From Candidatus Anstonellales archaeon (GTDB lineage: Archaea; Micrarchaeota; Micrarchaeia; Anstonellales; J096): a DNA stretch of 64,000 nt. Below the pieces are notes generated by a model. That model ran no database searches and was not told the origin of the DNA. It saw only the letters and a program-made list of their open reading frames with translations. The translations under genes and the position numbers were made by a program. The stretch is from assembly GCA_038890615.1 (NCBI GenBank), contig JAWAFI010000002.1, forward strand, positions 17,488 through 81,487, in the 5' to 3' direction. Below, one piece after another: positions 10,735 to 50,029 of the stretch; position 1 is the stretch's first letter; each line of letters begins with the position of its first letter.

Positions 10735-10807
10735 GGGGAAGTGGGCCAACCTGGTATGCTGCCAGCTTTGGGAGCTGGTGATTCGAGTTCAAATCTCGGC
10801 TTCCCCA
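10735..10807 (+). tRNA. tRNA-Pro (anticodon TGG)
   Basis: The acceptor GGGGAAG pairs with CTTCCCC. The anticodon stem CCAGC/GCTGG encloses the loop TTTGGGA, and the T-loop is TTCAAAT. There is a discriminator A and no encoded CCA. Confidence 0.8.
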
Positions 10808-11528: not shown

Positions 11529-12778
11529 GGGCAACTTTTTACGGCGGCGCGGGAGAGATAGGAAGAAGCTGCATACAGGCAGGTGATATGCTGCTAGATG
11601 CAGGGATAAAGCTTGGAAAGGCAAACGAATTCCCAGCAATAGGGACATTGGATGGAATAAGCAAAATAATAGTGACCCATGCTCATTTAGACCACTGCGG
11701 CTACTTGGCACACCTAAGCAATGAGATTGCGGAAAAGGATATAATAACCACCCCTCCAACAAAAGATCTTATGGGGCTATTGCTGTCAGATTACGCCTCA
11801 TTAGCAGAAGACATAGGCCCAGGCGCAGTTGAGGCTGTAATGAGAGCTACTAAAACAATAAATTTCCACAAGATAATAAGGAATGATGGCAGGATAAGGC
11901 TGCACAGGGCAGGCCACATACTTGGTGCTGCGATGGTTGAGATAAACAATGGTGGAAAAACAATAATTTACACCGGGGACATGAACAACAGAGGAGGCAA
12001 GACAATAGCAGGCTGTGAAAGGATAAGAAAGGCAGACACGCTGATAATAGAAGGAACGTATTGTTTAGAAGACAGGAAGCCAATTAAGGCAGTTTCAGGC
12101 GAATTTGAGAGGAAAATAAGGGAAGTCATTGGAAGAGGGGGCACAATACTGATACCTGTTTTTGCAGTTGGAAGGGGGGAGGAAATACTTTTGACACTTC
12201 ATGATATGGCGAAAAGAGGCACTCTGAAAGCTAAAATATATGTTGATGGTATGGTCAAGAAAGCTTACAATGTTTACAGGCAAAACATACTTTATGCCAG
12301 GAAATCGCTGATTTCAAGGATACTCCTTAGCGATGATGACCCTTTCAAGAGCCCCTATTTCATTATACCCAAAACCATGGACAAGAGCGATGTTGAAGGT
12401 GGTGTCATAGTCACAACCTCTGGAATGCTTACAGGAGGGCCAATTGTACAATACCTCAAAAGATTTGGAGGTGATGAAAACAACGCAGTGGTGCTCACTG
12501 GTTACCAGGCAGAAGGCACTCCTGGAAGGCAACTGCTTGATGGAATGAAAAAGGTGGAAATAGGGGGGGAGAATATTGAGGTAAGGGCGCAGGTCTGGCA
12601 GGCAGACTTCTCGGGGCATGCAGACAGGAATGGCCTAATATCCTTTGTGAAAGGAATAAAGGGGCTGAAAAAGATAGTGCTTGTGCATGGGGAAAGGGGC
12701 AAAATGGAGAAATTTGCAGAAGAGTTAAAGGAATACGAAGTTGAGATACCTCAGCAGTTTGATGAGGTTGACTTGTAG
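11525..12778 (+). CDS. Metallo-beta-lactamase / beta-CASP family ribonuclease (aCPSF/RNase J-like)
   Basis: Motifs seen are HAHLDHCG (MBL motif 2), an upstream D/H, and downstream beta-CASP-type H residues. Length is 417 aa. Confidence 0.7.
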   Translation: MRATFYGGAGEIGRSCIQAGDMLLDAGIKLGKANEFPAIGTLDGISKIIVTHAHLDHCGYLAHLSNEIAEKDIITTPPTKDLMGLLLSDYASLAEDIGPGAVEAVMRATKTINFHKIIRNDGRIRLHRAGHILGAAMVEINNGGKTIIYTGDMNNRGGKTIAGCERIRKADTLIIEGTYCLEDRKPIKAVSGEFERKIREVIGRGGTILIPVFAVGRGEEILLTLHDMAKRGTLKAKIYVDGMVKKAYNVYRQNILYARKSLISRILLSDDDPFKSPYFIIPKTMDKSDVEGGVIVTTSGMLTGGPIVQYLKRFGGDENNAVVLTGYQAEGTPGRQLLDGMKKVEIGGENIEVRAQVWQADFSGHADRNGLISFVKGIKGLKKIVLVHGERGKMEKFAEELKEYEVEIPQQFDEVDL

Positions 12779-13332
12779 GAGCTCCCGTTCTTTTCAACTA
12801 TCACGCAGATGGAAGAGTCGCCCTTCCTAGATGTCCATGTTACATACCACTTTCCATCCCTAAATATAACCTCTGGCATTGCTTGGTAAGAATCTATGTA
12901 AGATGAGATCTCAGCAGTTGGGTAAAGCTTGTGGGATGCTATTATTGCCTCCTCTGGGAAAAGTATGCTGCAATGCTCTGCTATGCAAAGCTGGCACCTT
13001 TCAGTTATCACTTCTGGGGGCTGGGGCACAAAGTTCTGCTCAGGGTAATTGTAGTATAGGTGAATCCTTGAAGGGCATTTTGTCTGCAAACCCCAGCTAA
13101 CCCTGACCTTAACCTCATAATAATCCCCTTTTGAACTGTATTTCTTGTCCATAGAAACGACTTCTATTACCTCAGCCTGAGGGTATTTCACTGCAGCGTC
13201 TTCTATAACATAGTTCCTTATGTCCTCCTCCACTACATAATCAGGAAGGAATGGCTTTATCAGCAATATCGTTAAAGCCATAATCAGAAGAAGCAAAGCA
13301 ATGTGCTCTATCCTTATTTTTTCCCTTTTCAT
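12751..13332 (-). CDS. Membrane-anchored hypothetical protein (N-terminal TM, Cys-containing extracytoplasmic domain)
   Basis: N-terminal hydrophobic helix LLLLIMALTILLI. Overlaps the upstream wHTH/coiled-coil gene by 4 nt. Confidence 0.35.
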   Translation of the reverse strand: MKREKIRIEHIALLLLIMALTILLIKPFLPDYVVEEDIRNYVIEDAAVKYPQAEVIEVVSMDKKYSSKGDYYEVKVRVSWGLQTKCPSRIHLYYNYPEQNFVPQPPEVITERCQLCIAEHCSILFPEEAIIASHKLYPTAEISSYIDSYQAMPEVIFRDGKWYVTWTSRKGDSSICVIVEKNGSSYKSTSSNC

Positions 13333-14834
13333 TTCTTCATGCTCTTGAGTTTTTGTGATTTCCTGAAAATAGTGACTTTAGATTTTTCAATCTCCTTGCT
13401 AAGGTCCGCAGGCTTTCCAGAAGCTAAGTCCTTTGCCTTTGTGAGAAGTTCTTTCAAGTAAGCCTGCAACTCTTCTACTTGGCTCTCAATAAGCTTTTCT
13501 TTCTGCACCATCTCTTCGCCCTTCTCTACATATTCCTTCATTAAGGCATTTAGGTTCTGCTCATAAAGGTAGACCGTGCTCTTTTCCTTTCCAGAAACCA
13601 CATTCTCTACTACTTCCTGCGTTTCGGCAACATCCTTCTCAATCTCAGCGATAAGGTTCTCATAATCATTGTAATAGTTTAGCACTTCCTTTTCAAGCTG
13701 CTTTGTATTCTCGATCTGCTTTAGGATGTCATCAAGGTTTTCCTTCCTTCTCCTTGTACTCTCCCTAAGCATGTCTATCCTATCGCTTAGCTCCAGCCTG
13801 ACTTTTGCCATTGAGGATACCGCCCTGTCTGCCTCTTCAGCCCTTGCCTGCACTTCTGAAACAGTCGAGCGTATTGAATCTACCTTTGCCCTAAGCTCTT
13901 TCTCCTTTTCCATAAGGTTCTTGTACTCTTTTTCTACTGTTTCAATAAGCTTCTCCTCGTCCCTCATTGCGTCATTTATGCTCTTTTTCTGGTCATTCAC
14001 TTCCTTCATAAGTTCAGCAACTTCTTTTTTAACAGAATCAAGAAGCTCCTTTATAAGCCCCATCTCATGCTGGGCTTTTTTCTCTATTTTCTCCACAAGG
14101 CTTGCGTACTTAGCAACCTTCTCGTATTTCTCAGGAAGGGACGCCACTCTGTCCTGCAAAGAAAGGATCAGCTGCTCTTTTTCCATCACCTTCTCTGCTA
14201 TCTTGTCTGCCTTTGCTTGGGTAAGCGCTTGAAGCTCTGCAAACTCATCAGTATAAAGCTTTTCCTTCTTCTCCTTTAGTTTAGAAAGCTCCCCTTTTAC
14301 CCTGTTTATCTCATCCAAATATTCCCTGAGGGAAGTAAGAGCCTTTTTCTTTTTGTCCTTGATTTCATCCTTCTGTTTTTGAACATCTTCCTCTTTCGGC
14401 TGCTCAGCCCATTCTGGCTCCTCTGGCTGGGCCTCTGCCTTCCTCACAACCATCTGCTTCTTCTCAGCAGGAGGCTTGGTTGTGCCTAGCTTTATGACTT
14501 TCACTTCTTCTGGCTTCTTCTTTTCGGCTTTCTTTGGCTTCTTCTTTTCGGCTTTCTTTGGCTTCTCGGCTTTCTTTGGCTTCTCCTTCTGCGGTTTCGC
14601 GGCCTCAACCGGCGGCTTCTTTGCCTCAACAGCTTTCCTTTCATGGCCAAGCCACTCAACATATGTCTTTGTAAGGGTGTAGTAGATGCGCACATAACCT
14701 TCTGCCTCAAGAACCTTTATCCAATACTTCACTTCATCAAATCCCCTGTTCAGCTCATTTGCTATTTCAGAAAGCTCCAGCTTCTTCTTTTTGGATATTA
14801 ATTCTATGAGCCTGTCTACATCTGTGGTTATCAT
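13329..14834 (-). CDS. Winged-helix plus long coiled-coil protein with a Lys/Glu/Pro repeat linker
   Basis: The N-terminus is wHTH-like (LIELISKKKKLELSEIANELNRGFDEVKYWIKVLEAEGYVRIY). This is followed by a (PKKAEKKK)n linker and about 350 aa of heptad-rich, E/K-rich coiled coil. Confidence 0.5.
   Translation of the reverse strand: MITTDVDRLIELISKKKKLELSEIANELNRGFDEVKYWIKVLEAEGYVRIYYTLTKTYVEWLGHERKAVEAKKPPVEAAKPQKEKPKKAEKPKKAEKKKPKKAEKKKPEEVKVIKLGTTKPPAEKKQMVVRKAEAQPEEPEWAEQPKEEDVQKQKDEIKDKKKKALTSLREYLDEINRVKGELSKLKEKKEKLYTDEFAELQALTQAKADKIAEKVMEKEQLILSLQDRVASLPEKYEKVAKYASLVEKIEKKAQHEMGLIKELLDSVKKEVAELMKEVNDQKKSINDAMRDEEKLIETVEKEYKNLMEKEKELRAKVDSIRSTVSEVQARAEEADRAVSSMAKVRLELSDRIDMLRESTRRRKENLDDILKQIENTKQLEKEVLNYYNDYENLIAEIEKDVAETQEVVENVVSGKEKSTVYLYEQNLNALMKEYVEKGEEMVQKEKLIESQVEELQAYLKELLTKAKDLASGKPADLSKEIEKSKVTIFRKSQKLKSMKK
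14510..14590. repeat. Imperfect tandem 24-nt coding repeat (ggcttcttcttttcggctttcttt, about 3.5 copies) encoding KKAEKKKP units
   Basis: Direct tandem copies are visible in the sequence at 14512-14590, inside the CDS 13329-14834. Confidence 0.7.
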
Positions 14835-21347: not shown

Positions 21348-21431
21348 TGCAGGGGGTGGGGTTCGAACCCACGCAGCCACTAAGGCACAGGATCCTAAGT
21401 CCTGCGCGTTTGACCGCTCCGCCACCCCTGC
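21348..21431 (-). tRNA. tRNA-Leu (anticodon TAG), type II with long variable arm
   Basis: Reverse complement GCAGGGG...CCCCTGC A. Three-bp D-stem GCG/CGC, anticodon stem CAGGA/TCCTG with loop CTTAGGA, a 16-nt variable arm, and T-arm GTGGG-TTCGAAC-CCCAC. Confidence 0.85.
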
Positions 21432-32162: not shown

Positions 32163-32234
32163 TGCCACAGGGCGGATTTGAACCGCCGACCCTCCGGTCT
32201 TCAGCCGGATGCTCTCCCGCTGAGCTACTGTGGC
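32163..32234 (-). tRNA. tRNA-Phe (anticodon GAA)
   Basis: Reverse complement GCCACAG-TA-GCTC-AGCGGGA-GAGC-AT-TCCGG-CTGAAGA-CCGGA-GGGTC-GGCGG-TTCAAAT-CCGCC-CTGTGGC-A. All four stems pair canonically. Confidence 0.85.
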
Positions 32235-39159: not shown

Positions 39160-39999
39160 TTGCTTTCCCTTTTGATGATGAGCACGCTGAAGGCATGGGT
39201 TGCGCTTTTCAGAGCTGAGCATGCGCTTCTCATATGCATTGCAATAGCGTTTTCGCAGTATATCACCGGTGCTGCCCCAAACATTATTCACTACATAGCC
39301 CCCATACTTGCGCAATTCTCTGCGTTTGCCCTAAACGATTACCTTGATGCAGAGGCGGATAAGCTAAACAAGAGGAAAGACAGGCCAATAGTTTCAGGCC
39401 TAGTAACAAAGGAGCAGGCCCTTTATGCAGGGGTAGGCGCATTAGCCCTTTCTCTAGTGGCTGCGCTTTTCCTGCCTCTCATAGCCCTCTCAATAGTGCT
39501 TTTATTCAACGCGCTTTCGCTGTTATACAACTTGCGCCTTAAGGATTACCCTCTCGTGGGTGAATTTTACATTGCCTCTTCCATGGCAATACCATTCATA
39601 TATGGGGCTTCTTTTGCGCAGGTAACAGTGCCTATAATAGTAATAACGATAACTGTTTTCTTCTTCGGCATTGGCAGGGAGATTATAAAGAAGGTAGAAG
39701 ATATGGCTGGTGACAAAAAGGCAAGAGGGGCTAGCACTCTCCCTATCTTAATAGGCGCAAAGGGGGCAGTAAAGGTTGCAATTGCCTTCCTTTCTGTGTC
39801 TTTTGCTCTTTTTGCCGTTGCTTTTTTCCTGTTCTTCATTCCTAACCCAGTTTCCCTGCTTTTCTTTGCTTTCATGGCCATCCTTCTCTTTTACTCAGTA
39901 TACTCCGCAATTGCTAATGATTACAAAAAGGCACGCATGGTGAGCCTTGCTTCCATGTTCTTTGCGCTCATTGCGCTCTTTTTTGGAGCATTCCCCTGA
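39160..39999 (+). CDS. UbiA-family prenyltransferase (DGGGP synthase-like)
   Basis: NDYLDAEADKLNKRKDRP Asp-rich motif and about eight TM helices. Confidence 0.7.
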   Translation: MLSLLMMSTLKAWVALFRAEHALLICIAIAFSQYITGAAPNIIHYIAPILAQFSAFALNDYLDAEADKLNKRKDRPIVSGLVTKEQALYAGVGALALSLVAALFLPLIALSIVLLFNALSLLYNLRLKDYPLVGEFYIASSMAIPFIYGASFAQVTVPIIVITITVFFFGIGREIIKKVEDMAGDKKARGASTLPILIGAKGAVKVAIAFLSVSFALFAVAFFLFFIPNPVSLLFFAFMAILLFYSVYSAIANDYKKARMVSLASMFFALIALFFGAFP

Positions 40000-41563
40000 T
40001 CTTTTCTATTTCTCCCCTATCTATCTTTCTGAACAGGTTGCCTATTCTTCCAATCTTGATTGCCTTTTGCCCTATTTCCTCCCATTCGCACTTGCCCCCA
40101 ACCATCTCTGAGATTTTCCTGCTGCTCTCAGGCAGGTAAGGGCTCAGCAGTGGGCCAAGCGCCTTCAGCCAGTTTGCGCAAGCTGTCAGTGTCCTATTCT
40201 TAACTTCGGCATTCTTCCATGGCTCCCTTTCATTAAGAAGGGCGTTGTACCTGCTGTTTTCGTTCACAATCCTGTCAAGCGCCTCCTTTATCCTAAACCT
40301 TTCCACCTCTGCAACCACCTCCTCCTTGAGCTTGGCTACATCCTCCCTCATCCTCCTTTCCTCCTCACTCTCTTCATATTTAAACCCAAGTTTTTCTGCA
40401 AGCACTGAGACCCTTTTGGCGAAGTTGCCTATGTTGCCAACCAAGTCGTTGTTTATCCTATTGGCAAAATCATCCAAGTTAAAATCCGAGTCAGCAAGGC
40501 TGAAAGGGGTTATTTGCGTCTCATAATACCTTAGATACTCTGCAGGGAAAACCTGCAGGAACTCATCTACTGTTATGTAGTGCTTCCTGCTCTTTGAGAA
40601 TTTCCTGCCCTCAAGAGTAAGATGGCCCCTTACAGGTATTGCGCTCGGCAACTTTATGCCAATGTCCGCTGCCATTATCATTGCAGGCCAGAATAGGTAG
40701 TGGTGGTAAACTATGTCCTTGCCTATAAAATGCACTATCCTGCCATTCCAGTACTCCTTCCATTTAGGGGTAAGAGCAACAGTGCTGCTTATATAACCGA
40801 TTGGGGCGTCAAACCAAACATAAAACACCTTTCCTTTCTCAGCAGGCACGCCCCAGTCCAAATCCCTGACTATGTCCCAGTCAACGAGCCCCTCCTTTAT
40901 CCAATTGAGAACATAGTTTTTAACCTCGTCCTGCATCTCTTTGTTTCCCTTTATCCATTCCTCCAGCTTAGGCCCAAACGCCTTCAGGTTGAAGAATGAG
41001 TGCTCTGACCTCTTTTTTGATGGCTTTTTCCTGCAGACAGAGCACTTTGGCTCCTTTATTTCACCTGGCCCTATTGTCCGTCCACAAGCTTCACAGCCAT
41101 CGCTGTATTGGTCCTCTGCCCCGCAGTGGGGGCAAATGCCAATGACAAACCTGTCAGGAAGGAATCTATTGCAGGTTTCGCAGTAGTAAAGCTCTACCTC
41201 CTTGGTGTAAATATAACCGCGCTCCTTTGCCCTTTGGAAAAAAAGCAAGGTCATCTCCTTGTTTTCCTTGCTTGAGGTCCTGTGGAATACGTCAAAATCT
41301 ATAAGCAGCTTCCTGAATGTCTCCTTGTCCTTCTCGTGGTATTTCTTTACAAACTCCTCTGCGCTCACTCCTTCCTTTTCAGCCCCAGCCACTATAGGGG
41401 TGCCATGCTCGTCTGTTGCGCATACATATATTGCATCCTTTCCAAGTGCCTTCATGAACCTGGTATATATATCTGCTGGCAGGTAGGTGCTCCTTATGTG
41501 GCCTAAATGAAGCTCCCCGTTTGCATAAGGCAATGCAGCAGTAACTACTATCCTTTCTTCCAT
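39968..41563 (-). CDS. metG: Methionyl-tRNA synthetase
   Basis: HIGH motif PYANGELHLGH, KMSKS-type RKFSKSRKH, and a zinc knuckle (CETCNRF...CPHCG). Confidence 0.9.
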   Translation of the reverse strand: MEERIVVTAALPYANGELHLGHIRSTYLPADIYTRFMKALGKDAIYVCATDEHGTPIVAGAEKEGVSAEEFVKKYHEKDKETFRKLLIDFDVFHRTSSKENKEMTLLFFQRAKERGYIYTKEVELYYCETCNRFLPDRFVIGICPHCGAEDQYSDGCEACGRTIGPGEIKEPKCSVCRKKPSKKRSEHSFFNLKAFGPKLEEWIKGNKEMQDEVKNYVLNWIKEGLVDWDIVRDLDWGVPAEKGKVFYVWFDAPIGYISSTVALTPKWKEYWNGRIVHFIGKDIVYHHYLFWPAMIMAADIGIKLPSAIPVRGHLTLEGRKFSKSRKHYITVDEFLQVFPAEYLRYYETQITPFSLADSDFNLDDFANRINNDLVGNIGNFAKRVSVLAEKLGFKYEESEEERRMREDVAKLKEEVVAEVERFRIKEALDRIVNENSRYNALLNEREPWKNAEVKNRTLTACANWLKALGPLLSPYLPESSRKISEMVGGKCEWEEIGQKAIKIGRIGNLFRKIDRGEIEKIRGMLQKRAQ

Positions 41564-41600: not shown

Positions 41601-42362
41601 TTAAAGCTCCCTTTTTAAAAGCGAAGCAAGCTTTTTGTTGCAGTTGATTAGCCCTGTATAAATCTGAATCCCTACTGTAAGGTTTCTGAAGCGATTGCAC
41701 TCCTTGCTTAGTTTTCTTCCGTATTCCCTTATCATTGCCCAGCTAAGCCCATAGTTGACCCTGTCAAGCAGGTCGAGCGCTGTTTTCCCATCCATGTTCC
41801 TAAGGAAGGGGTTTACTCCTGCTCTGAAAAGAAGGGTTTTTATTACATAATGGTTCTTTTCCCCAAGCACTGCATAGTGCAATGCTGTGTTTCCCTCCTT
41901 GCTTTTTATTCCAGCATCTGCCCCATAGTCCAACAGCAGGTTTAGAATATCATAGTCTCCAGAATAAGAAGCCTTCATGAGTGCTGTTTCCCCTTTTTGG
42001 TTCCTTGCATTTACCTTTGCACCTAATTTCAGCAATAATTCCACTGCATAAAAGGCCCCTGTTTCAGAAGCCCTTATGAGTGCAGTGTTCCTTTCCTTGT
42101 CCCTCCAGTTCGGGTCTATTTCTGCCTCTAACATAATTTTCATAACTTCTACATCGTTTTTGCGTGCTGAATCTATGAAAATTTCAGCCAGCCTTTCCCT
42201 CCCTTCCTTCGTCTCTTTCATCTTCTTCATCTGCTCCACCAATTCCCTGTGCTTTGCCTCCTCATCCCTTTTCCCTTCAACAAGCCCATCCTTTTTTTCA
42301 AAACCCTTCTTAGCTGCCTTTTCCTCTTTTCCATTCTCCTTATTTTCAACCTTTTCAACCAT
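41601..42362 (-). CDS. Ankyrin-repeat protein
   Basis: Four to five ANK repeats (NTALIRASETGAFYAVELLLKLGAKVN, ETALMKASYSGDYDILNLLLDYGAD, NTALHYAVLGEKNHYVIKTLL). Confidence 0.8.
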   Translation of the reverse strand: MVEKVENKENGKEEKAAKKGFEKKDGLVEGKRDEEAKHRELVEQMKKMKETKEGRERLAEIFIDSARKNDVEVMKIMLEAEIDPNWRDKERNTALIRASETGAFYAVELLLKLGAKVNARNQKGETALMKASYSGDYDILNLLLDYGADAGIKSKEGNTALHYAVLGEKNHYVIKTLLFRAGVNPFLRNMDGKTALDLLDRVNYGLSWAMIREYGRKLSKECNRFRNLTVGIQIYTGLINCNKKLASLLKREL

Positions 42363-42364
42363 CC

Positions 42365-42904
42365 CTATTCCTCCCCTTCAAGCACCCTTTTGGCTTTGTG
42401 GATGGCTTCTCCAGCTCTTCTGCTTTTCAACAGAGCCATAGCAGCCCAATACCTAACCTCTGGCTCAGGGTCATCGATGGCTTGCTTAAGCGCCTCCAAT
42501 TCTTTGCTGCTTAGTATTTTCTCTCCCACTAAAGAAAGCGCCCATGCTGCCTTCTTCCTTACCTCTGTGCTCTTGTCGCCAAGCGCATCAGCAAGCAACC
42601 CGATGCATGATTCTATGCCAAGCCCCTTTGCTGCTGTTTTCCCAAGGCATTCTGCAGCTGCTTCCCTTACTCTCTCATCCTTGTCTTTCAGCCCTTCAGC
42701 AAAAACTTCTGCTGCCCCTTCCTTTCCTAGAAGGCCTTCCATAAGCTTTATTTTTTCTGATGTTCCTATTGTGCTGAGCATCCCTATCCTCTCATCTGCT
42801 ATGGGCTCAATCCTTTCTTTCCTGCATTCTCTGCCTCCTTCTTTTTTGCACACCTTTTCCATGAAAAATGTACATTCTGCACCTTTATAATGATTGCCCT
42901 GCAA
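42365..42904 (-). CDS. HEAT (PBS-lyase-like) repeat protein
   Basis: Repeats DERVREAAAECLGKTAA, STEVRKKAAWALSLVGE and EPEVRYWAAMALLKS. Confidence 0.6.
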   Translation of the reverse strand: MQGNHYKGAECTFFMEKVCKKEGGRECRKERIEPIADERIGMLSTIGTSEKIKLMEGLLGKEGAAEVFAEGLKDKDERVREAAAECLGKTAAKGLGIESCIGLLADALGDKSTEVRKKAAWALSLVGEKILSSKELEALKQAIDDPEPEVRYWAAMALLKSRRAGEAIHKAKRVLEGEE

Positions 42905-43001: not shown

Positions 43002-43307
43002 ATGAGCAAGAAACTGTATGTAGGAAACCTGCCCTTTAGCGTGACGCAGGACCAGCTTAAGGAGATGTTCTCTTCTTACGGCTCTGTGTCAGAGGCTATT
43101 GTTATATCAGACAGAATGTCTGGCAGGTCTAAAGGATTTGGTTTTGTAACCTTTGATGAAGATGCCGCAGCTGACAAAGCTATGGCAGAAATGAACGGGA
43201 AAGATGTAGAAGGCAGACAGATTAAGGTTACAGAAGCCAGGCCGCCTTCTCCAGGTGGAAGAGGCGGCTTTGGAAGGGGCCCAGGAAGAGGAAGAGACGA
43301 GTTCTAA
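43002..43307 (+). CDS. RRM-type RNA-binding protein with Gly/Arg-rich tail
   Basis: RNP2 LYVGNL, RNP1 KGFGFVTF, and a C-terminal RGG-like tail (PGGRGGFGRGPGRGR). Confidence 0.8.
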   Translation: MSKKLYVGNLPFSVTQDQLKEMFSSYGSVSEAIVISDRMSGRSKGFGFVTFDEDAAADKAMAEMNGKDVEGRQIKVTEARPPSPGGRGGFGRGPGRGRDEF

Positions 43308-43380
43308 GCCCTTTATAACCTGTCCTAACCTTTCCCATTTTTCCCAAAACATATTTAATGATTGCCTAATTTAGTGCTTT

Positions 43381-44292
43381 ATGGATGAAGAGGAGAAAGC
43401 TGATTATAGCAAGATCAGCCGCAAGTTCAAAGAGGTGGCTGACTCAAACGCGCGCCTTGACTTAATAAAGGCAATAAAGCTTTATTCCCAAGGGAGCAAG
43501 GATGAGTCACTAAAACTCCTTAGCTCTATAATTGAGGAAGCGCCATCTATCGCAGCTTCAATGCTGTACTCCCCAAAAAGCGAGCTTGCTGATGAGTTTT
43601 CAAAGCTCCGCTTCTTTTCAATTTTCTTTGCAATGCTTAAATCAGTGAAGCGGTATGATGCAATTGTTGCCACAATCCTTTTTTCATTCAGGGACAAGAA
43701 GCACTATCCCATTGAGCTAGTAACTACCATCCTCCCTTTCATGCAGGACAAAGAATTCATAAGCGAATTCAGCTCCTCTTTAGAGGAGCATCCAAGGGAG
43801 CTTCTTCAGTTCTTGGTTGATTCTGAAGAGCAGGAGTTTGTCAAGCCGTTCAGGAAGTTCATAAAGGATTACATAGAGGAAAACTTTGGGGATGACCAGT
43901 ACACGGCAATAAAGGCCATTTCTTTAATAAAGGATTCTGCCACTGAAAGGTTCCTTCTTGGCTATATAGATGATTGGGATGAAGAGGTACGCCGTCTTGT
44001 CCTGCTGTACTTTATGAATTCGCAAAGCCATGAGATAGGCAGTGAATTTGTGAATGCCCTTATCTCTGAAAAGGACAGGCGCCTAAGGGCATTGCTAAAG
44101 CACATAATAATGAACAACTTCTCTAGGCTAAAGGATCACATCATAAAGGAAATCAAGAAGAATAAGTTAGAAGCATCAAAGGACCTTCTTCATGTAGCCT
44201 TCATGATGATGGATAAAAAGGAATTAAGTGAACTTGCAGATGAGCTAAGCGATGAAAAGCGAAACTATTTATTAAACAAGATGTACATTTGA
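43381..44292 (+). CDS. Hypothetical alpha-helical repeat (HEAT/ARM-like) protein
   Basis: All-helical with weak HEAT-like periodicity (EEVRRLVLLYF, DRRLRALLKHI). The ATGA overlap with the downstream KH gene puts it first in the Top VI array. Confidence 0.3.
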   Translation: MDEEEKADYSKISRKFKEVADSNARLDLIKAIKLYSQGSKDESLKLLSSIIEEAPSIAASMLYSPKSELADEFSKLRFFSIFFAMLKSVKRYDAIVATILFSFRDKKHYPIELVTTILPFMQDKEFISEFSSSLEEHPRELLQFLVDSEEQEFVKPFRKFIKDYIEENFGDDQYTAIKAISLIKDSATERFLLGYIDDWDEEVRRLVLLYFMNSQSHEIGSEFVNALISEKDRRLRALLKHIIMNNFSRLKDHIIKEIKKNKLEASKDLLHVAFMMMDKKELSELADELSDEKRNYLLNKMYI

Positions 44293-44822
44293 TTGCCATG
44301 ACCAGCATAATAAGGATCCCACAAACCATGGTGGAACAGGCAAAGGAGGCATGTTCAGCCATAAAAGGGCTAGTTAAGGCAAAGCTTAGCGTGAGCGAGG
44401 ACGGAACTGTTGAGATTGAAGGGGATGCTCTTGAGGAGCAGAGGGTCTGCCTTGTAATGAAAGCGATCGGAAGGGGGTTTGATAAGGAGGATGCACTTCT
44501 GCTCCTTGATGATGAGTATGAATTAAGGGCAATAAACCTTAAGGATTATTTCAGCTCCCCTGGCCACTTCAAGCGCATAAAAGGAAGAGTCATAGGAAGG
44601 GGCGGGAGCATAAAGAAGAGCATAGAAAGCTCCACCTTCTCAAGGATAAGCGTATGGGGGAACCATATCTCAATAATAGCCCCTTACTACTCCCTTCCAT
44701 ATGCAGAAGAGGCAGTAGGAATGATTATAAGAGGGTCAAAGCATTCAACCCTTGGGAATTACCTTTCCAAGGCAAGGAAGGACCTCATTTACACCCAGCT
44801 AAAAGGTGAAAAGAATGTTTGA
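44289..44822 (+). CDS. KH-domain RNA-binding protein, aDim2/Pno1-like
   Basis: Two KH folds: a degenerate first one (KAIGRGF) and a second with canonical GXXG (VIGRGGSIKKSIE). About 175 aa. Overlaps top6B by 17 nt. Confidence 0.6.
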   Translation: MIAMTSIIRIPQTMVEQAKEACSAIKGLVKAKLSVSEDGTVEIEGDALEEQRVCLVMKAIGRGFDKEDALLLLDDEYELRAINLKDYFSSPGHFKRIKGRVIGRGGSIKKSIESSTFSRISVWGNHISIIAPYYSLPYAEEAVGMIIRGSKHSTLGNYLSKARKDLIYTQLKGEKNV

Positions 44823-46410
44823 GGATTTCAAGGAATACTCAGTGGCTGAGTTTTTCAAGAAGAACAGGCAGATGATTGGCTTCAGCGGAAAGGTAAAAAG
44901 CCTCACAGTGATAGTGCATGAGTACTTTACAAACAGCATGGATGCTTGCGAGGAGGCAGGAATACTGCCTGACATAAAGGTGGCAATAACGCAGGAAGAT
45001 GAGGAGCGCTACACGGTTGAGGTATGGGACAATGGGCCTGGCATCCCAAAATCCATCCTTGGAAAGGCCCTTGGGAAGATGCTCACAGGCACAAAGTTCC
45101 ACCGCTATGTGCAGCAGAGGGGGCAGCAAGGAATAGGCGCAGCAGGGTGCACCATGTTTTCTTACCTTACTACCGGCAAGCCAATAGAGGTGGTCTCACG
45201 CTACAAAGGAAATGAAGTAAGGGCCACAATAGGGCTTGACATCCAAAGGAATGAGCCGGTAATGAATGTTATGGAAGAGAAAAAGCTCGAATCCCAAGAG
45301 CATGGCCTTTATGTTAAAGCTTACTTCTCAGATGTCAAGTATGATAAGAGCAGCTACAGCCCTTCTGAATACATAAAGCTTTCTGCCCTTTCCAACCCTC
45401 ATGCCCAAATAGAGTTCATAGAGCCATCAGGCCAGCGTTTCCTCTATCCAAGAGTGGTAAACGAGCTCCCTCCACGCCCAGTTGAGATAAAGCCCCATCC
45501 CCTTGGAGTTGACAGGCATATGCTTTTTGAGATGATGAAAGCATCCAAGCCGATGCGCATTTCCGCATTTCTCACATCAGAATTCTCGCGCTTCTCTTCA
45601 GCGAAGCTGGATGAGCTTCGCACTGCATGCCCAAGCGTTGACCTTTCCAAAAAGACAAGCGAAATCACTTGGGAAGAGGCAGAGAAGATTGTAAAGGCAA
45701 TTCAAAGCATTAAATGGATGGCGCCTCCTACTGATTGCCTTAGCGGCATAGGGGCTCAGCAAATGGAGAAGGCGCTCTCTAGCATCCTAAATCCCCAGTT
45801 CTTGAAGGTTGTCGAAAGGCCTCCAAAGGTTTACCGGGGTGGTGTGCCGTTCAAGGTTGAAGCAGCTATTGCCTATGCCCCTAACTTTGGCAAAACCCAA
45901 GTTCTGCGATATGCCAACAGGGTGCCCCTTATGTTTGATGCAGGGGCTTGTGCAATAACCGAAACAGTAAAGTCGATTGATTGGAAGCGCTACAACATTG
46001 ACATAGAGAACAACGCAGTGATAATGGTAAACCTTTCAAGCGTTTTCGTGCCTTATCTAACTGCAGGTAAGCAGGCAATATCTCCTGAAGAAGAGATAGT
46101 TGCAGAGATCAGGAATGCGTTGATGGAAGCAGCAAGGGGAGTTTCTGGGTTCATAAGCAGCGAGGTGCGTGAAAGGGAAAAAGGCAAAAGGAAGAAGATA
46201 TTCCTTAAGTATGTCCCCCAGATTGCAGCAGACCTTGCATACCTCTCAGATGTAAGGCAAGAGGTGCTCATGAAGGCAATGGAAAAAGTCATTGAAAAGA
46301 GGATGGGTGAAATAGAGGAGATGGAGAATGAAGATGAAGCCGAACCATTGCCTAGCAAGGAAAAGGAAAAAGGTGATGAAAATGGTGAAGCCGCTGGAGA
46401 AGCTGAATGA
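44806..46410 (+). CDS. top6B: DNA topoisomerase VI subunit B
   Basis: GHKL/Bergerat ATPase motifs (NSMDACEE, VWDNGPGIP, GQQGIGAAG), transducer domain, 534 aa. Confidence 0.9.
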   Translation: MKRMFEDFKEYSVAEFFKKNRQMIGFSGKVKSLTVIVHEYFTNSMDACEEAGILPDIKVAITQEDEERYTVEVWDNGPGIPKSILGKALGKMLTGTKFHRYVQQRGQQGIGAAGCTMFSYLTTGKPIEVVSRYKGNEVRATIGLDIQRNEPVMNVMEEKKLESQEHGLYVKAYFSDVKYDKSSYSPSEYIKLSALSNPHAQIEFIEPSGQRFLYPRVVNELPPRPVEIKPHPLGVDRHMLFEMMKASKPMRISAFLTSEFSRFSSAKLDELRTACPSVDLSKKTSEITWEEAEKIVKAIQSIKWMAPPTDCLSGIGAQQMEKALSSILNPQFLKVVERPPKVYRGGVPFKVEAAIAYAPNFGKTQVLRYANRVPLMFDAGACAITETVKSIDWKRYNIDIENNAVIMVNLSSVFVPYLTAGKQAISPEEEIVAEIRNALMEAARGVSGFISSEVREREKGKRKKIFLKYVPQIAADLAYLSDVRQEVLMKAMEKVIEKRMGEIEEMENEDEAEPLPSKEKEKGDENGEAAGEAE

Positions 46411-47473
46411 TTTTGGTAAGAATCTTGCAGAGCGCATAATACGTGGCGAAGAGCCCTCTTTTGAGCTTCCTGTTCGCTCGCGCAGCAATGTTGTTTTTGA
46501 CCCATCTGTGGGCTACCTGCGCCTTGGGCAAAACAAAGAGGTTCGCAAGTACCTGAGCCTTTCGCAGGCAAAAAAATTCATGCAAACCCTGTCTGTTGCA
46601 GCCAAGGTCAAGAAATTTGTAAAAGAAGGGCTGCATACAAGCATAAGGGGCCTTTACTACCAGCTCAAGTTTACGCTTGGGGAAGATATAGACGAAGACC
46701 TTTTCACTGAGCAGGAGGAATCCAATGTGCTAATAGAGGACCTTGAGTCAGCCCTAACCTTAAAAAGAGAGGATTTCAACCTGACCACAGACAGGAAAGG
46801 GGTTATGGCAGGCCCTATAATGCTCATTGACAAGTTTGCGGGCGAGACGATAGAGATTGACGGCACAAGGCAGGGAAGGAGCGGCTGGGCTGTCCCAAGC
46901 GATGTGGACAATGGAATTGAAATAAAAAAGATAGAGGCTGATTATGTGCTGGTTGTCGAAAAGGATGCCTTATGGCAAAGGCTCAATGAAGACAAGTTTT
47001 GGGACAAGAACAACTGCATACTGATAACCCCTAAAGGACAGGCCTCAAGGGGCGTTAGGAGGCTCATAAGGAAGCTTGCCGATGCAGGGCTCCCAATATA
47101 CTTTTTCACTGACTGCGATGCATGGGGCTGGTATATTTACTGGACTGCAAAAACAGGAAGCATGAACCTCGCCTACCTAGGAAGGGACTTTGCAGTGCCT
47201 GAAGCAAAGTTCTTGGGAGTAACTATGAGCGACATAAAAGAGTTTGATTTCCTCCAAAAGCTCACAATAAAGGCAAAGGATATAGATCTGAGGAGGGCGC
47301 AGGAGCTCCTTAGTTATGAGTGGATAGGGCGCTACAAGGACTGGCAGAAGGAGCTCAACCTTGTGCTTAAGGAGAAGAAGAAGCTTGAGCAGGACGCACT
47401 TCAGGGACCTCGGCTGACATTTGTTGGTGACTATGTTGAGCAAAAGATAAAAAAGAAGGAGTTTTTATCCTAA
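46376..47473 (+). CDS. top6A: DNA topoisomerase VI subunit A (Spo11-like)
   Basis: ATG at 46376 (MKMVKPLEKL). Winged-helix region containing the catalytic Tyr, and a Toprim domain with FFTDCDAWGWYIY. Confidence 0.9.
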   Translation: MKMVKPLEKLNDFGKNLAERIIRGEEPSFELPVRSRSNVVFDPSVGYLRLGQNKEVRKYLSLSQAKKFMQTLSVAAKVKKFVKEGLHTSIRGLYYQLKFTLGEDIDEDLFTEQEESNVLIEDLESALTLKREDFNLTTDRKGVMAGPIMLIDKFAGETIEIDGTRQGRSGWAVPSDVDNGIEIKKIEADYVLVVEKDALWQRLNEDKFWDKNNCILITPKGQASRGVRRLIRKLADAGLPIYFFTDCDAWGWYIYWTAKTGSMNLAYLGRDFAVPEAKFLGVTMSDIKEFDFLQKLTIKAKDIDLRRAQELLSYEWIGRYKDWQKELNLVLKEKKKLEQDALQGPRLTFVGDYVEQKIKKKEFLS

Positions 47474-47475
47474 AC

Positions 47476-48705
47476 ATGGAAAACAAGCTAATATATGATG
47501 CAATAGAATTCCTTTCCTCAATAACCAGCTATGATCCTTCCAACATTGAAAAACTTAGGGTGCTCAAGGAGCAAATGCTCCAAATGGGCTTTGATTCACC
47601 TTTCAAGCCGATGCTCTCGCTGCCTTCATTTGATGATGAAGAGATGAGCGAAGCAGAGGCGCATGATGTAAAGAAGCACCTCTCCTATTTCCGCTACCGC
47701 GCTTTTCTCAAGAAGTCATTGCTAAGGCAGGTGCAGCTTTCAATCGCCGCGCACAAGGTTTACAAAGCACTTGAGAGCTATGGCGCTCCGGATATCCTTC
47801 CTTATATCCCTTTGAAAGGCAACCATGTTGACATGTTCATTCGCTATGGGATTGATTCCCTTTTAGTTTACAAGCATCTTAGCAGCCTGCTTTCAAAGCA
47901 TGCAGATGAAGAATATTACTATATCGTAAATCTCAAAACAAAAAAAGGCATTGAGGCAAGGAAGGTCCAGAGGCTCAAAGGGCTAAAGGAGGTTGTGTCA
48001 AGCAAGAGATTTGTGCGCTCAAAGAAGCTCATCTCCTCCACCCCAATATCAATCTCCTACCTGACTGCGATAGCCACTTACACTTCAAGCTCTGTTCCAG
48101 AAGAATCAGGGATTTCTGATTCTTTGCGCTCCTACAACCAAGTGCTTAAGGAGCACGGGATAGTGCCATTTGTATTCATGGACAAGGTGGAAGGCTTTGA
48201 GCATGTGAAGGAGGCATTAGCCAAAAAAGGGTTTATGCTTGAGCAGAAGGATGATTTCATACTCTCCCCTAAGATTGAGGCAGAGCTGCGGGAAGTGCGG
48301 AGGCGCAGGATGGAAAAGCTCAAGCAAGTTGCAACCCTGCTTTTCTTGACGCCACTGCTTAAGTTCTACCTTCTCAAATCAAGGAGGCAGAGGGAATCAA
48401 ACCCTTTGATCCCTTCAATCGAGACTGAGCCCTCATCAAACCAGCTTTCAATATTTTCTGCGCTTGCAGAAGAAGAGGCGCGCCTGAAAGGCATTGAAAA
48501 GGCGCTTTCTGAGAAGCTTATGCTTGAAAAGGCAGTGAAGGACCAGCAGAGATTAGCTGTTTCCCTGCTTAAAGTGCACACATCTCTTCCAAGCACATGG
48601 ATTGCTGACTTTTGCTCTGTGAATGTGGAATATGTTGAAAAAGTGCAGCCATGGCATTCCTTCATAAAAGGTGGCAGGGGTGAAAGGTTCCTCAAGGAGC
48701 TTTAA
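47476..48705 (+). CDS. Hypothetical protein encoded immediately (2-nt gap) downstream of top6A
   Basis: A 409-aa protein with no recognisable motif, on the same strand. Its start codon lies 3 nt after the top6A stop. Confidence 0.4.
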   Translation: MENKLIYDAIEFLSSITSYDPSNIEKLRVLKEQMLQMGFDSPFKPMLSLPSFDDEEMSEAEAHDVKKHLSYFRYRAFLKKSLLRQVQLSIAAHKVYKALESYGAPDILPYIPLKGNHVDMFIRYGIDSLLVYKHLSSLLSKHADEEYYYIVNLKTKKGIEARKVQRLKGLKEVVSSKRFVRSKKLISSTPISISYLTAIATYTSSSVPEESGISDSLRSYNQVLKEHGIVPFVFMDKVEGFEHVKEALAKKGFMLEQKDDFILSPKIEAELREVRRRRMEKLKQVATLLFLTPLLKFYLLKSRRQRESNPLIPSIETEPSSNQLSIFSALAEEEARLKGIEKALSEKLMLEKAVKDQQRLAVSLLKVHTSLPSTWIADFCSVNVEYVEKVQPWHSFIKGGRGERFLKEL

Positions 48706-48985
48706 GCTTGTAGGCAAGAGCACTGCGCTTCTTAATTCACAATTGACTAAGGAAGTTGCCTTAGAGATTGCAAGAAACGAGCAAATAAAGGAAGTAGTGG
48801 TTTCCCAGACAAACTTGAAAAGGGCTTCCTTGCCTGTGTTGCGTGCCCTGCGCAAAGTGGGCATCACAATACGCACCAAGCCGTCTTTCAGGAAAAGAAT
48901 CCTAAAGCGCGTTTCTTTATCCCTCAACAAGAGCAAATCCCTCAGGTCAGCAGGCCTCTCTAAAAGCTTCTTTTATAGGAAGTAG
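48671..48985 (+). CDS. Small basic hypothetical protein
   Basis: A 104-aa, K/R-rich protein. It overlaps the previous gene by 35 nt and could be spurious. Confidence 0.2.
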   Translation: MAGVKGSSRSFKLVGKSTALLNSQLTKEVALEIARNEQIKEVVVSQTNLKRASLPVLRALRKVGITIRTKPSFRKRILKRVSLSLNKSKSLRSAGLSKSFFYRK

Positions 48986-50029
48986 CTACCTGCTTACCTT
49001 GCCTTTGACCATTTCAATTATGCTTTCCTTTCCCTTGAACCTTTGCCTCACAGGCTCAATCATTTCATTGAGCTCTCTTGCAACTGCTGCCTTTAGGTCA
49101 AGCGGGTGTATCTTGCCTTGTGAATAAAGCGATGCCAGTTCGCCATCTATCTCAACTTCTATGTCGCCCCCAAACTCCTTCTTCCTTTCAATAAGGAGCG
49201 TTTCCTTTGATGCCCCTATTACATAGCTAGCTATCTCATACACAGGGTTGCCTTCTACCTGCCTTTCAGGGCAGAATGCCTTTTTGACCTTTCTCTCAAC
49301 TTCTTCCTTGCTCTCGTGCAAATAGATTGCTGTTTCTGGCCTGCTCTTGCTCATCTTGGCATCAAGAAGCTCCTCATCCTTGTAAGGGTCCATCTTCTTT
49401 GAGCTCTGGAGGCTGGGGAGTATGTGGTTGTGCACTGCTACAAAAGAGGGATTTATCTCCCTTGCAAAAACATGGACCTTCCTCTGGTCCATCCCTGCGT
49501 GCGCTATGTCTATGCCCATATAAAATATGTCCGCTGCCTGCATGAGCGGATAAATTATGTTTGCTGTGTGTATGCTCTCCCCTTCCTTCCTGCCCATTAT
49601 GGTTGAGCACCTGAGCGCCCTCTTTATTGTAGCCCTCTTGCTGAGCTCAAGCACAAGCTTCCAGTAGTCTTCTTTGTATATTTCGCTTGCAAGCACATAG
49701 TTGGCATCATCTATGCCCATTGCCCTGTACAGCTCAGTAAAGTATTCCCTTCCAGCCTTTTGTATAAGCTCCAAATCCCCTCCAAGCTTGTTGTTTATCC
49801 ATGCGTGGTAATCCGCAAGGAAAACATTAAGCTCTATTCCTGCTTTCTTAAAATGCTTCATCTTCTCTGCTATAAGCAGGTTGCCTATGTGCCCTATGCC
49901 TGAAACCTCAAAACCTATGTAGTGCTTGGGCCTGCTCTTTTCTTCAAACAGCTTCCTTAAATCTTCTGGCGTTATCACTTCCTCTGTTGGCTTTCTCATC
50001 ACAAGAGCAATCCTCTCTTCTATGTCCAT
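48986..50029 (-). CDS. tyrS: Tyrosyl-tRNA synthetase (archaeal type)
   Basis: Collinear with Methanocaldococcus-type TyrRS: YIGFEVSGIGHIGN class-I region, KMSKS (DAKMSKSRPE), and C-terminal GGDIEV...LHPLDLKAAVA. Confidence 0.85.
   Translation of the reverse strand: MDIEERIALVMRKPTEEVITPEDLRKLFEEKSRPKHYIGFEVSGIGHIGNLLIAEKMKHFKKAGIELNVFLADYHAWINNKLGGDLELIQKAGREYFTELYRAMGIDDANYVLASEIYKEDYWKLVLELSKRATIKRALRCSTIMGRKEGESIHTANIIYPLMQAADIFYMGIDIAHAGMDQRKVHVFAREINPSFVAVHNHILPSLQSSKKMDPYKDEELLDAKMSKSRPETAIYLHESKEEVERKVKKAFCPERQVEGNPVYEIASYVIGASKETLLIERKKEFGGDIEVEIDGELASLYSQGKIHPLDLKAAVARELNEMIEPVRQRFKGKESIIEMVKGKVSR

Follow-up and report, generated by a model that had tools for sequence, protein, structure and literature searches.

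Archaeal DNA topoisomerase VI (Topo VI) is considered to be sufficient in itself as an A2B2 enzyme; the eukaryotic enzymes that descend from it depend on accessory proteins that bind DNA. Two such proteins, RHL1 and BIN4, are required for Topo VI function and strictly co-occur with the eukaryotic enzyme, but they are absent from archaea, for which our literature search found no Topo VI accessory factor described (PMC11302465). The top6A and top6B genes are contiguous in most archaea, and in haloarchaea and Methanosarcinales they form top6BA-gyrBA clusters, which have been read as co-regulation (Berthon et al., 2008, PMC2643942). The same study described archaeal superclusters of replication and translation genes, e.g., PCNA-PriS-Gins15 with L44E-S27E-aIF2alpha-Nop10, which provide a precedent for such co-location, and reported no KH, HEAT-like, DUF530 or DUF1699 genes beside Topo VI (PMC2643942).

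We analyzed a stretch of 64,000 nt of contig JAWAFI010000002.1 (hereafter, the window) from a Ca. Anstonellales genome of the Micrarchaeota (DPANN). The initial annotation had reported a tight array of six same-strand ORFs, and our ORF reading of the window found all six on the plus strand, at the coordinates listed here together with two promoter-like boxes:

43351..43359, plus strand: TATA-like A/T box ATATTTAAT, about 26 nt 5' of the first ATG, by sequence reading
43381..44292, plus strand: ORF1, HEAT-like helical-repeat protein, 303 aa
44266-44277, plus strand: TATA-like box CTATTTATTAAA, 5' of the KH gene
44298..44822, plus strand: KH-domain protein, arCOG04150 / aDim2(Pno1)-like, 174 aa from ATG 44298, alternative TTG 44289 (longest frame 44289-44822, 177 aa)
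44815..46410, plus strand: top6B, DNA topoisomerase VI subunit B, 531 aa from ATG 44815 (longest frame 44806-46410, 534 aa)
46382..47473, plus strand: top6A, DNA topoisomerase VI subunit A, 363 aa from ATG 46382 (longest frame 46328-47473, 381 aa)
47476..48705, plus strand: DUF530-family protein, 409 aa, pI 9.3, start 2 nt past the top6A stop
48680..48985, plus strand: small basic partner protein, 101 aa, pI about 12 (longest frame 48671-48985, 104 aa)

The two central genes encode both Topo VI subunits. Top6B scores 578.7 bits against TIGR01052 (cut-off 380.7) and contains HATPase_c and Topo-VIb_trans (E 6.9e-49) domains, i.e., the GHKL ATPase fold and the transducer domain that define the subunit, and its translation includes the N-box EYFTNSMDA, DNGPGI and GQQGIGAAG. 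Top6A matches TP6A_N (PF04406, 56.5 bits) and TOP6A-Spo11_Toprim (PF21180, E 1.4e-52), and the motifs IRGLYYQ, VVEKDA and DCDAWGW, which are invariant in the alignment, supply the 5Y-CAP with its catalytic tyrosine and the Toprim E and DxD residues. Its score against the NCBIfam equivalog (411.5) falls below the cut-off of 465, as expected for a divergent DPANN lineage. As the motifs show, the Topo VI encoded here is a canonical, motif-complete A2B2 enzyme.

The junctions between the genes differ in part from those initially described. The ATGA overlap reported between ORF1 and the KH gene is absent: ORF1 stops at TGA 44290-44292, and the KH frame opens either at TTG 44289, which results in a TTGA overlap, or at ATG 44298, which leaves a gap of 5 nt. 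A 17-nt overlap between the KH gene and top6B holds only for a top6B start at GTG 44806; the most likely start is ATG 44815, which is preceded at a spacing of 5-6 nt by the Shine-Dalgarno (SD) motif AGGTGA (44804-44809) and shortens the overlap to 8 nt. The most likely start of top6A is ATG 46382, which overlaps top6B by 29 nt and follows an AGGTGA (46371-46376) in the same context; the 17-nt SD context common to both genes corresponds to repeat D14. For the small gene, the most likely start is GTG 48680, which lies 6 nt after AGGTG (48669-48673), overlaps DUF530 by 26 nt and gives the 101 aa of the NCBI annotation (P0168). The stop of the small gene abuts that of the convergent TyrRS gene at 48986.

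SD motifs, not TATA-like boxes, precede the starts of the internal cistrons top6B, top6A and the small gene, and a sequence scan found no SD motif upstream of the KH gene. The ATATTTAAT box comes after a T5 run (43338-43342) at the end of the upstream RRM gene, and we infer that it is the promoter of a leaderless transcript, while the CTATTTATTAAA box may be an internal promoter for the KH gene. T5 runs are no commoner at gene junctions than within genes. Promoter and SD assignments were made by reading the sequence alone, and the signals agree with a single transcription unit. Transcription would start from the ATATTTAAT box and yield a leaderless mRNA, with the second box before the KH gene as a possible extra start. 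Translation of top6B, top6A and the small gene would initiate at AGGTG(A) sites located within the preceding cistron, 5-6 nt from each start, and the DUF530 start 2 nt past the top6A stop suggests termination-reinitiation. In the window, the MetRS and TyrRS genes likewise have boxes resembling ATATTTAAT about 30 nt 5' of their starts.

Co-transcription had initially been proposed from the tight spacing of the genes. By a crude gene call, the window is about 95% coding, and gaps of at most 10 nt separate 26 of 38 same-strand neighbor pairs (median -1), which indicates that the tightness of the Topo VI array is not beyond chance. Because tiny gaps are the norm for this genome, significance must come from comparative conservation. 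The proposal retains the support of the SD motifs and of the recurring gene order described below, and we consider it highly probable that top6B, top6A, DUF530 and the small gene are co-transcribed. The same compactness bears on a competing explanation, in which the adjacency is fortuitous and inherited and DUF530 and the small gene perform a housekeeping role of their own that has no connection to Topo VI: compact DPANN genomes pack unrelated housekeeping genes into long co-directional strings.

We compared gene order across 80 species-level (species-representative) Micrarchaeota loci, with denominators that vary by gene, and found that the array consists of three pairs of closely coupled genes: HEAT-like-KH, top6B-top6A and DUF530-small. 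The top6B and top6A genes are adjacent in 66 of 68 loci. In the first pair, the 303-aa protein of the window matches HEAT_2 weakly, and 17 of 24 family members match it; the family profile aligns with alphaRep/HEAT structures at a best E of 6.6e-27 (a fusion, over six repeat stretches) and with other alphaRep chains at 6.6e-15 and weaker. The KH protein scores 127.6 bits against TIGR03665/arCOG04150 (cut-off 114.2; profile positions 13-170 of 173) and matches KH_KRR1_2nd/KH_PNO1_2nd, and its translation includes a GRGG motif; it thus combines a score above the family cut-off with tandem KH domains and a GXXG loop in the second. A HEAT-like homologue lies 5' of the KH gene in 26 of 62 loci, and the gap between them is at most 50 nt in 28/28 loci (median 5 nt). 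In 57 of 68 loci the KH gene precedes top6B, but the two are loosely joined: the median gap is 94 nt, and 0.3-2.8 kb separates them in 19/61. The initial annotation had suggested a coupling of Topo VI with ribosome biogenesis. The co-location itself recurs, but the KH gene is coupled to the HEAT-like gene and only loosely to top6B. Most probably, the KH/HEAT pair serves ribosome biogenesis and has no closer tie to Topo VI than a common transcription unit, and the position of KH next to Topo VI is best read as co-location or co-expression.

The 409-aa protein, which had been described as lacking a recognizable domain, is a member of Pfam DUF530 (PF04409; E 7e-20, 71.4 bits, cut-off 27) and is named 'DUF530 family protein' by NCBI. 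Membership, judged by the gathering threshold and by homology to canonical members along the length, is supported: 43 of 47 aligned family members match PF04409, and phmmer connects the protein to Methanobacteriales members at E 8.5e-8 to 9e-4. Its best stretch against Pfam spans no more than profile positions 31-115 of 521, canonical members are longer by about 110 aa, and it is assigned to a divergent Micrarchaeota subfamily. We found 89 representatives of the family, of which those named are from Micrarchaeota and Methanobacteriales; the family median pI is 9.1. An AF2 model of the protein (pLDDT 91.9, pTM 0.87) had no significant fold match in the PDB, with MarR/Sso10a-type winged helices as the sole, low-probability hints, and neither fold nor sequence similarity yielded a biochemical function. 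Weak winged-helix-like features and long helices are apparent in the protein.

The small protein of the window aligns with small genes 3' of DUF530 in every locus examined, including an orthologue that is 66% identical (L001). The orthologues match DUF1699_N (PF28505) and HTH_7 (PF02796); the window protein has no Pfam match of its own and aligns along its length with matching orthologues, retaining the N-domain, with FRKR in place of the RGRP arm and a deletion of about 12 HTH residues. We tentatively assign it as a degenerate member of the family that combines DUF1699_N with a Hin/resolvase-type HTH. The family profile finds the Cbp2-type HTH of structure 2lvs (E 2.5e-7) and, weakly, chains of resolvase/Hin (E 0.02-0.4), and the DUF1699_N alpha/beta domain had no significant fold match; the AF2 model of the small protein has a pLDDT of 81.6, and the family median pI is 10.7. 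The partner family resembles the C-terminal DNA-binding domain of Hin and gamma-delta resolvase, as well as Cbp2 (PDB 2LVS), in its R-G-R-P arm, and Hin in a three-helix HTH that ends in '...S.RT.YY'. In contrast to Hin and gamma-delta resolvase, the family does not have a serine-recombinase catalytic domain, and the window copy differs from these proteins and Cbp2 by its HTH deletion. The partial loss of the HTH makes DNA binding by this copy doubtful.

DUF530 lies directly 3' of top6A in 20 of 69 Micrarchaeota loci, in 19 of which the small gene follows, and the linked loci fall in several deep top6A clades. A relative that is 63% identical (L001) has top6B-top6A-DUF530-small in the same order, and (KH)-top6B-top6A-DUF530-small recurs in four independent contigs (L002, L009, L010 and L011) in which DUF530 is 26-34% identical; the five metagenomic contigs with conserved order have differing flanks. 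A difference in the neighbors of top6BA among close relatives, which the initial annotation had named as grounds for refuting its reading, is not what these contigs show. Across linked loci, Top6A identity is 62-71% as compared to only 26-34% for DUF530. The gap between DUF530 and the small gene is at most 50 nt in 25/25 cases (median -8 nt), and that between top6A and DUF530 is at most 50 nt in 18 of 27 (median 20 nt). Inherited adjacency has to be weighed against these results: linkage outlives divergence of DUF530 to 26-34% identity and rearrangement of downstream genes (the window, L009, L011, L049, L065, L066 and L092), and the same-strand junctions are short in most linked loci. However, F0, an unrelated convergent gene for a secreted protein, is found 3' of the small gene or directly 3' of top6A in 35 loci and is thus as syntenic as DUF530, and the site between top6A and F0 holds the DUF530-small cassette in some loci but not in others. 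Inherited synteny therefore accounts for part of the conservation.

DUF530 is missing 3' of top6A, within the flank, in 48 of the 69 loci, and one more locus has DUF530 1.4 kb away. A Micrarchaeota MAG (L008) encodes DUF530-small without an upstream top6 gene, and three Methanobacteriales genera (Methanobacterium, Methanothermus and Methanosphaera) keep the pair away from top6, in the order MetRS-DUF530-DUF1699_N/HTH_7 by the primase genes. These genes form a single PriS-PriL-MetRS-DUF530 string in Methanothermus and are divergent in Methanobacterium and Methanosphaera. PriS lies 3 kb from the cassette in L003, and another neighbor elsewhere is a membrane protein with Pcc1/prefoldin. The DUF530 and small genes make up an autonomous cassette, and we have high confidence that its products are a functional pair. 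A strict co-location proxy for a Topo VI accessory subunit fails on these placements. We considered DUF530-small as an obligate, stoichiometric Topo VI subunit and rejected it on the basis of the 48 loci, L008 and the Methanobacteriales placement. The initial proposal that the 409-aa protein is a Topo VI-associated factor is partly supported, by recurrent linkage in deep clades, and weakened by the autonomy of the cassette. The limited linkage and the varied neighbors also favor inherited adjacency. Counting against it, Topo VI and primase, the neighbors that recur, are both enzymes that act on DNA, and the small protein belongs to an HTH-bearing family. We give inherited adjacency a substantial probability that stays short of even.

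The cassette-like presence and absence of DUF530-small at one site, together with HTH_7/HTH_23/HTH_Tnp_1-type matches in partner proteins, could also reflect a domesticated remnant of a mobile element with a resolvase- or transposase-type HTH that inserted 3' of top6A. We consider this origin very unlikely, as neither protein of the pair has a recombinase or transposase catalytic domain, the region has no flanking direct or inverted repeats and no matches to defense- or mobile-element families, each locus examined has a single copy, and the position is kept in three Methanobacteriales genera. The HTH might instead belong to a transcription-factor-like pair that controls the adjoining operon (top6BA, or primase/MetRS) and does not act with the enzymes. 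The weak MarR-type winged-helix hints in DUF530, the neighbors that differ among lineages and the location at operon 3' ends are consistent with such regulation; but a 410-540-aa protein with an obligate partner, beside different operons in distant lineages, is atypical of a local regulator, the window partner is retained despite its degraded HTH, and we looked for recurring operator-like repeats in the region and found none. We regard local regulation as a distinctly unlikely role.

Our preferred explanation is one polycistronic unit of three modules in which DUF530-small is a DNA-binding accessory alongside Topo VI, a reading that we hold to be evenly balanced. DUF530 and its partner would be an obligately paired, basic, probably DNA-binding two-protein module that a large part of the Micrarchaeota would co-express with Topo VI. 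In chromosomal DNA transactions, whether topology or replication, the module could act as an accessory or as a targeting factor. That the pair binds DNA is somewhat probable; a direct functional link to Topo VI is less likely than not. A stronger version, in which DUF530-small is a hitherto unrecognized archaeal complex that binds DNA and acts in physical association with Topo VI (with the primase/replisome in Methanobacteriales), and hence the first archaeal Topo VI accessory factor, is improbable; if true, the pair would correspond in function to RHL1/BIN4 of plants, would have a fold without a counterpart among solved structures, and might target or regulate decatenation during replication. 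If the Topo VI link is instead fortuitous, tight spacing and multi-species synteny are weak evidence of function in DPANN genomes. Taken together, we conclude that this locus is a conserved variant of the predicted Topo VI operon in which DUF530-small is plausibly a DNA-binding accessory of DNA topology or replication. The pair can reasonably be put forward as a candidate, still unproven, for a partner of archaeal Topo VI, made concrete by its conserved position 3' of top6A, where its translation is probably coupled, and, in methanogens, beside primase, which also provides the first context-based functional hint for DUF530 and DUF1699_N, archaeal DUF families without literature.

The closest counterpart is the MetRS-DUF530-DUF1699_N/HTH_7 cluster of Methanobacteriales, whose location beside primase was not found in the literature searched. 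It contains the same cassette in the same order, with tiny gaps, at the 3' end of an information-processing operon, but its canonical DUF530 is 512-537 aa as compared to 409 aa here, its partner has one or two complete HTH_7 units, and its upstream neighbors are MetRS and primase rather than Topo VI. The KH/aDim2-like gene 5' of top6B fits the pattern of the replication-translation superclusters (PMC2643942), although the KH-top6B junction is loose here. As in the top6BA-gyrBA clusters (PMC2643942), top6BA is extended by further genes in one cluster, but those genes encode a gyrase of known function whereas the added genes here are uncharacterized. Finally, we detected no homology between DUF530-small and RHL1/BIN4, and the pair differs from them in that just about 30% of Micrarchaeota loci link it to top6A and Methanobacteriales place it elsewhere; like plant/eukaryotic RHL1 and BIN4 (MIDGET), the DNA-binding companions of Top6A/Top6B, it is basic, probably DNA-binding and, in the window, co-encoded with top6BA.

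The window lies on a 91.8-kb contig of a Candidatus Anstonellales MAG (Micrarchaeota, DPANN). Six plus-strand open reading frames make up the array, and their positions agree with those in the initial annotation. By domain scan, the 534-aa product is Top6B (TIGR01052, 578.7 bits; HATPase_c and transducer domains) and the 381-aa product is Top6A (TP6A_N and Toprim). The 177-aa product is arCOG04150/TIGR03665, the KH protein universal in archaea (127.6 bits; cut-off 114.2), and the 303-aa product belongs to a HEAT-like repeat family, of which 17 of 24 members match HEAT_2 and whose profile matches alphaRep/HEAT structures (best E 6.6e-27). The 409-aa protein encoded after Top6A had been described as having no recognisable domain; however, Pfam places it in DUF530 at 71.4 bits (cut-off 27; E 7e-20), in agreement with its NCBI annotation. 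The sixth gene encodes a small basic protein, and the refined starts read from the sequence place the last four junctions as follows.

Junctions of the window array with refined starts
KH/top6B: 8-nt overlap
top6B/top6A: 29-nt overlap
top6A/DUF530: 2-nt gap
DUF530/small gene: 26-nt overlap

An identical context, AAAAGGTGA-N5-ATG, lies 5' of ATG 44815 (top6B) and ATG 46382 (top6A), and AGGTG is found 6 nt before GTG 48680 of the small gene, the start that NCBI also uses (101 aa, P0168); AGGTGA fits the standard archaeal anti-SD. An ATGA overlap had been read at the first junction, but the stop codon of the first frame is TGA 44290-44292, and the KH frame starts with either TTG 44289 (TTGA) or ATG 44298. 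The first gene has no SD and carries the box ATATTTAAT ~26 nt upstream, after a T5 run that follows the upstream RRM gene, and the MetRS and TyrRS genes have similar A/T boxes ~30 nt upstream of their starts. This arrangement suggests that the array genes are co-transcribed from a leaderless promoter and that translation of the internal cistrons is SD-driven or coupled. A comparable box, CTATTTATTAAA, ~27 nt before the ATG of the KH gene makes a second promoter possible. Five of the seven T5 runs in the region lie within genes, which renders the run at 47462 uninformative, and a bacterial promoter and terminator scan was set aside as inapplicable to archaea. Because the window is ~95% coding and 26 of its 38 same-strand neighbour pairs are separated by ≤10 nt, the tight spacing of the array is not distinctive by itself. 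Rfam at the gathering threshold revealed no RNA elements in or near the array; its matches in the window are three tRNA genes (10735-10807, +; 21348-21431, -; 32163-32234, -).

The order top6B-top6A-DUF530-small proved to be conserved, recurring in locus L001 and four further contigs. L001, whose DUF530 is 63% identical to that of the window, also shares the convergent TyrRS gene that follows. In the four other contigs (L002, L009, L010 and L011/L012), the string (KH)-top6B-top6A-DUF530-small has differing flanks, and identity to the window is 26-34% for DUF530 and 62-69% for Top6A. The TAG of the window small gene (48983-48985) abuts the CTA stop of TyrRS (48986-48988) with zero intergenic bases, and the same stop-to-stop abutment occurs in L001 at 3244/3245. 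Since DUF530 alignments have no conserved stretch of 7-10 residues, loci were collected via top6A instead: GTDB species representatives were scanned with a Top6A alignment, which yielded 80 Micrarchaeota loci in which the six families were mapped by HMMs.

Neighbours of top6A, counted over loci whose flanks are long enough; all loci were selected through top6A and are from Micrarchaeota
top6B adjoining top6A: 66/68
KH gene upstream, same strand: 57/68 (adjacent in 40, separated by extra sequence in 17)
HEAT-like gene upstream: 26/62
DUF530 directly downstream of top6A: 20/69, plus 1 at 1.4 kb
small gene after DUF530: 19/69

On a crude neighbour-joining tree, the DUF530-linked state occurs in several deep Top6A clades and is missing from one large clade, a distribution that, as far as such a tree can be read, fits an old top6A-DUF530 linkage with losses. 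Three loci (L038, L059 and L078) have top6A with no detectable top6B immediately upstream despite available flanking sequence and may contain split top6 genes or a paralogue; in the Top6A tree, L059 and L078 share a long branch as near-identical sisters.

The junction statistics resolve the array into three tight pairs, [HEAT-KH][B-A][DUF530-small].

Gaps between consecutive genes across loci
HEAT-like to KH: median 5 nt; ≤50 nt in 28/28
KH to top6B: median 94 nt; >200 nt in 19/61
top6B to top6A: median 0 nt; ≤10 nt in 56/81
top6A to DUF530: median 20 nt; ≤50 nt in 18/27
DUF530 to small gene: median -8 nt; ≤50 nt in 25/25

The constant partner of the KH gene is thus the HEAT-like protein, not Topo VI. 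The wide KH-top6B spacers, found in 19 of 61 loci, measure 0.3-2.8 kb (L016, L022, L024, L027, L028, L056, L079, L082, L087 and others). The Dim2p gene of Pyrococcus horikoshii may lie near top6BA; literature searches on Dim2 with Topo VI and on PH156x locus tags yielded no relevant paper. In archaea, replication genes are known to co-locate with genes for ribosomes or translation (PMC2643942), which makes the KH and HEAT-like neighbours of top6BA unsurprising.

Several other genes were observed beside the array. Directly upstream lies an RRM_1 protein gene (43002-43307, +; 101 aa, E 6e-25) whose product ends in an RGG/GRG tail; a T5 run and a TATA-like box lie between this gene and the array. 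Few archaeal RRM proteins are glycine-rich, and no homologue was found in any of the other loci examined. Eukaryote-like repeat proteins recur around the array: shortly before the array, the window has a gene for ankyrin repeats and a separate one for HEAT repeats (41601-42362, -, and 42365-42904, -), and two ankyrin-repeat genes precede the HEAT-like/KH/top6 array in L002 (2157-4049, +).

Clustering of the frames downstream of top6A identified a convergent gene, F0, in 35 Micrarchaeota loci, including the following two.

L010, 9551-12235, - strand: F0
L002, 9654-11936, - strand: F0

The F0 product is a Cys-rich protein of ~760-1000 aa whose N-terminus resembles a signal peptide/lipobox and which weakly matches SLT transglycosylase. 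A second large conserved gene, F1, is usually next. In non-linked loci F0 immediately follows top6A, at offsets from a few nt to ~1.3 kb, and in 12 linked loci it comes after the small gene, which indicates a single fixed site that either holds DUF530-small or does not. Genes with no plausible Topo VI link thus also keep their synteny, which makes adjacency weaker evidence than first appears. That DUF530-small and top6BA share nothing except inherited adjacency is a real possibility, although we place it short of even likelihood: F0 is equally kept near top6A, yet the top6A-DUF530-small linkage persists where F0 is not downstream (the window, L009/L071, L011, L049, L065, L066 and L092). In L010, and in that locus only, two condensin kleisin subunit genes, ScpB and a faintly matched ScpA, lie just past F0 (12244-13339, -), ~3 kb from top6A; the idea that F0 encodes an SMC-like protein, which came from this adjacency, was rejected because its product looks like a secreted protein or lipoprotein.

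The DUF530-small pair also occurs away from Topo VI. In Methanobacterium, Methanothermus fervidus and Methanosphaera, it follows MetRS with primase genes adjacent, as one co-directional string, PriS-PriL-MetRS-DUF530-DUF1699_N/HTH, in Methanothermus and with divergent primase genes in the other two; no top6 gene was found near the pair in any of the three loci. An archaeal clade (L003-L006) has the order membrane protein, DUF530-like, small gene, with PriS 3 kb off in L003, and the Micrarchaeota MAG locus L008 carries DUF530-small with no top6 upstream on a contig that ends ~630 bp before DUF530. These differing neighbours identify the pair as an autonomous cassette, one that recurs beside information-processing genes and, in two cases, beside genes for DNA enzymes (Topo VI and primase). 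In L003 and L005, the 287-aa gene that precedes the DUF530-like gene was considered as a HEAT-like homologue and rejected (hhalign probability 0.07; membrane protein). MetRS abuts or overlaps the start of DUF530 in the three Methanobacteriales genera (L007, L093 and L094), immediately precedes the HEAT-like/KH/top6BA string in the Micrarchaeota loci L047, L063 and L091 (about 720-2950, +), and is found in the window 1.8 kb upstream of the array on the opposite strand (39968-41563, -).

Relatives of DUF530 were few in a word-indexed homologue search and numbered 89 in an exhaustive HMMER search. A confident AF2 model from a 47-sequence alignment (pLDDT 91.9, pTM 0.87) comprises an N-terminal helical hairpin, 43-residue helix and three-stranded sheet, followed by a winged-helix-like helix-helix-helix-hairpin unit, a 36-residue helix and, at the C-terminus, a bundle of helices. 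In the PDB, Foldseek found nothing significant (best E 0.34), the only hints being MarR- and Sso10a-type winged helices at low probability, and the DUF530 profile had no consistent match among PDB sequences or in Pfam (E up to 1). The invariant or near-invariant positions (G115, R306, K79, P112, Y220, K347, E351 and F405) point to no known catalytic site. The protein is basic (pI 9.3; family median 9.1). Its obligate partner, the small protein, belongs to a family in which a small alpha/beta domain, DUF1699_N, is joined to an RGRP arm and an HTH of the Hin/resolvase type (Pfam HTH_7; PDB 2lvs, E 2.5e-7; resolvase/Hin chains weak, E 0.02-0.4). The window protein and its L001 orthologue have lost ~12 HTH residues and their arm reads FRKR, and both are still very basic (pI ~12); a moderately confident model (pLDDT 81.6) gave no significant fold match. 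DUF530-small has no known fold or function, and literature searches on DUF530, PF04409 and DUF1699 returned nothing relevant, with no paper mentioning DUF530 or DUF1699 in archaea.

We infer that the pair probably binds DNA and may act together with Topo VI or in replication. That it is directly linked to Topo VI in function is a tentative reading, which we consider about as probable as purely inherited adjacency. What probability remains is shared by a role of the pair as a regulator and an origin as a domesticated mobile remnant, the latter finding little support because flanking repeats, catalytic domains and defence-system matches (PADLOC) are all absent.

Taken together, these results indicate that the operon variant is real and conserved. 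They bear out part of the proposal that the 409-aa protein is a candidate Topo VI-associated factor, in that the gene order is conserved; however, the protein belongs to a known uncharacterised family. No archaeal Topo VI accessory factor was described in the literature searched, and RHL1/BIN4 are absent from archaea (PMC11302465); the connection of DUF530-small to Topo VI is lineage-restricted and unproven, but plausible.
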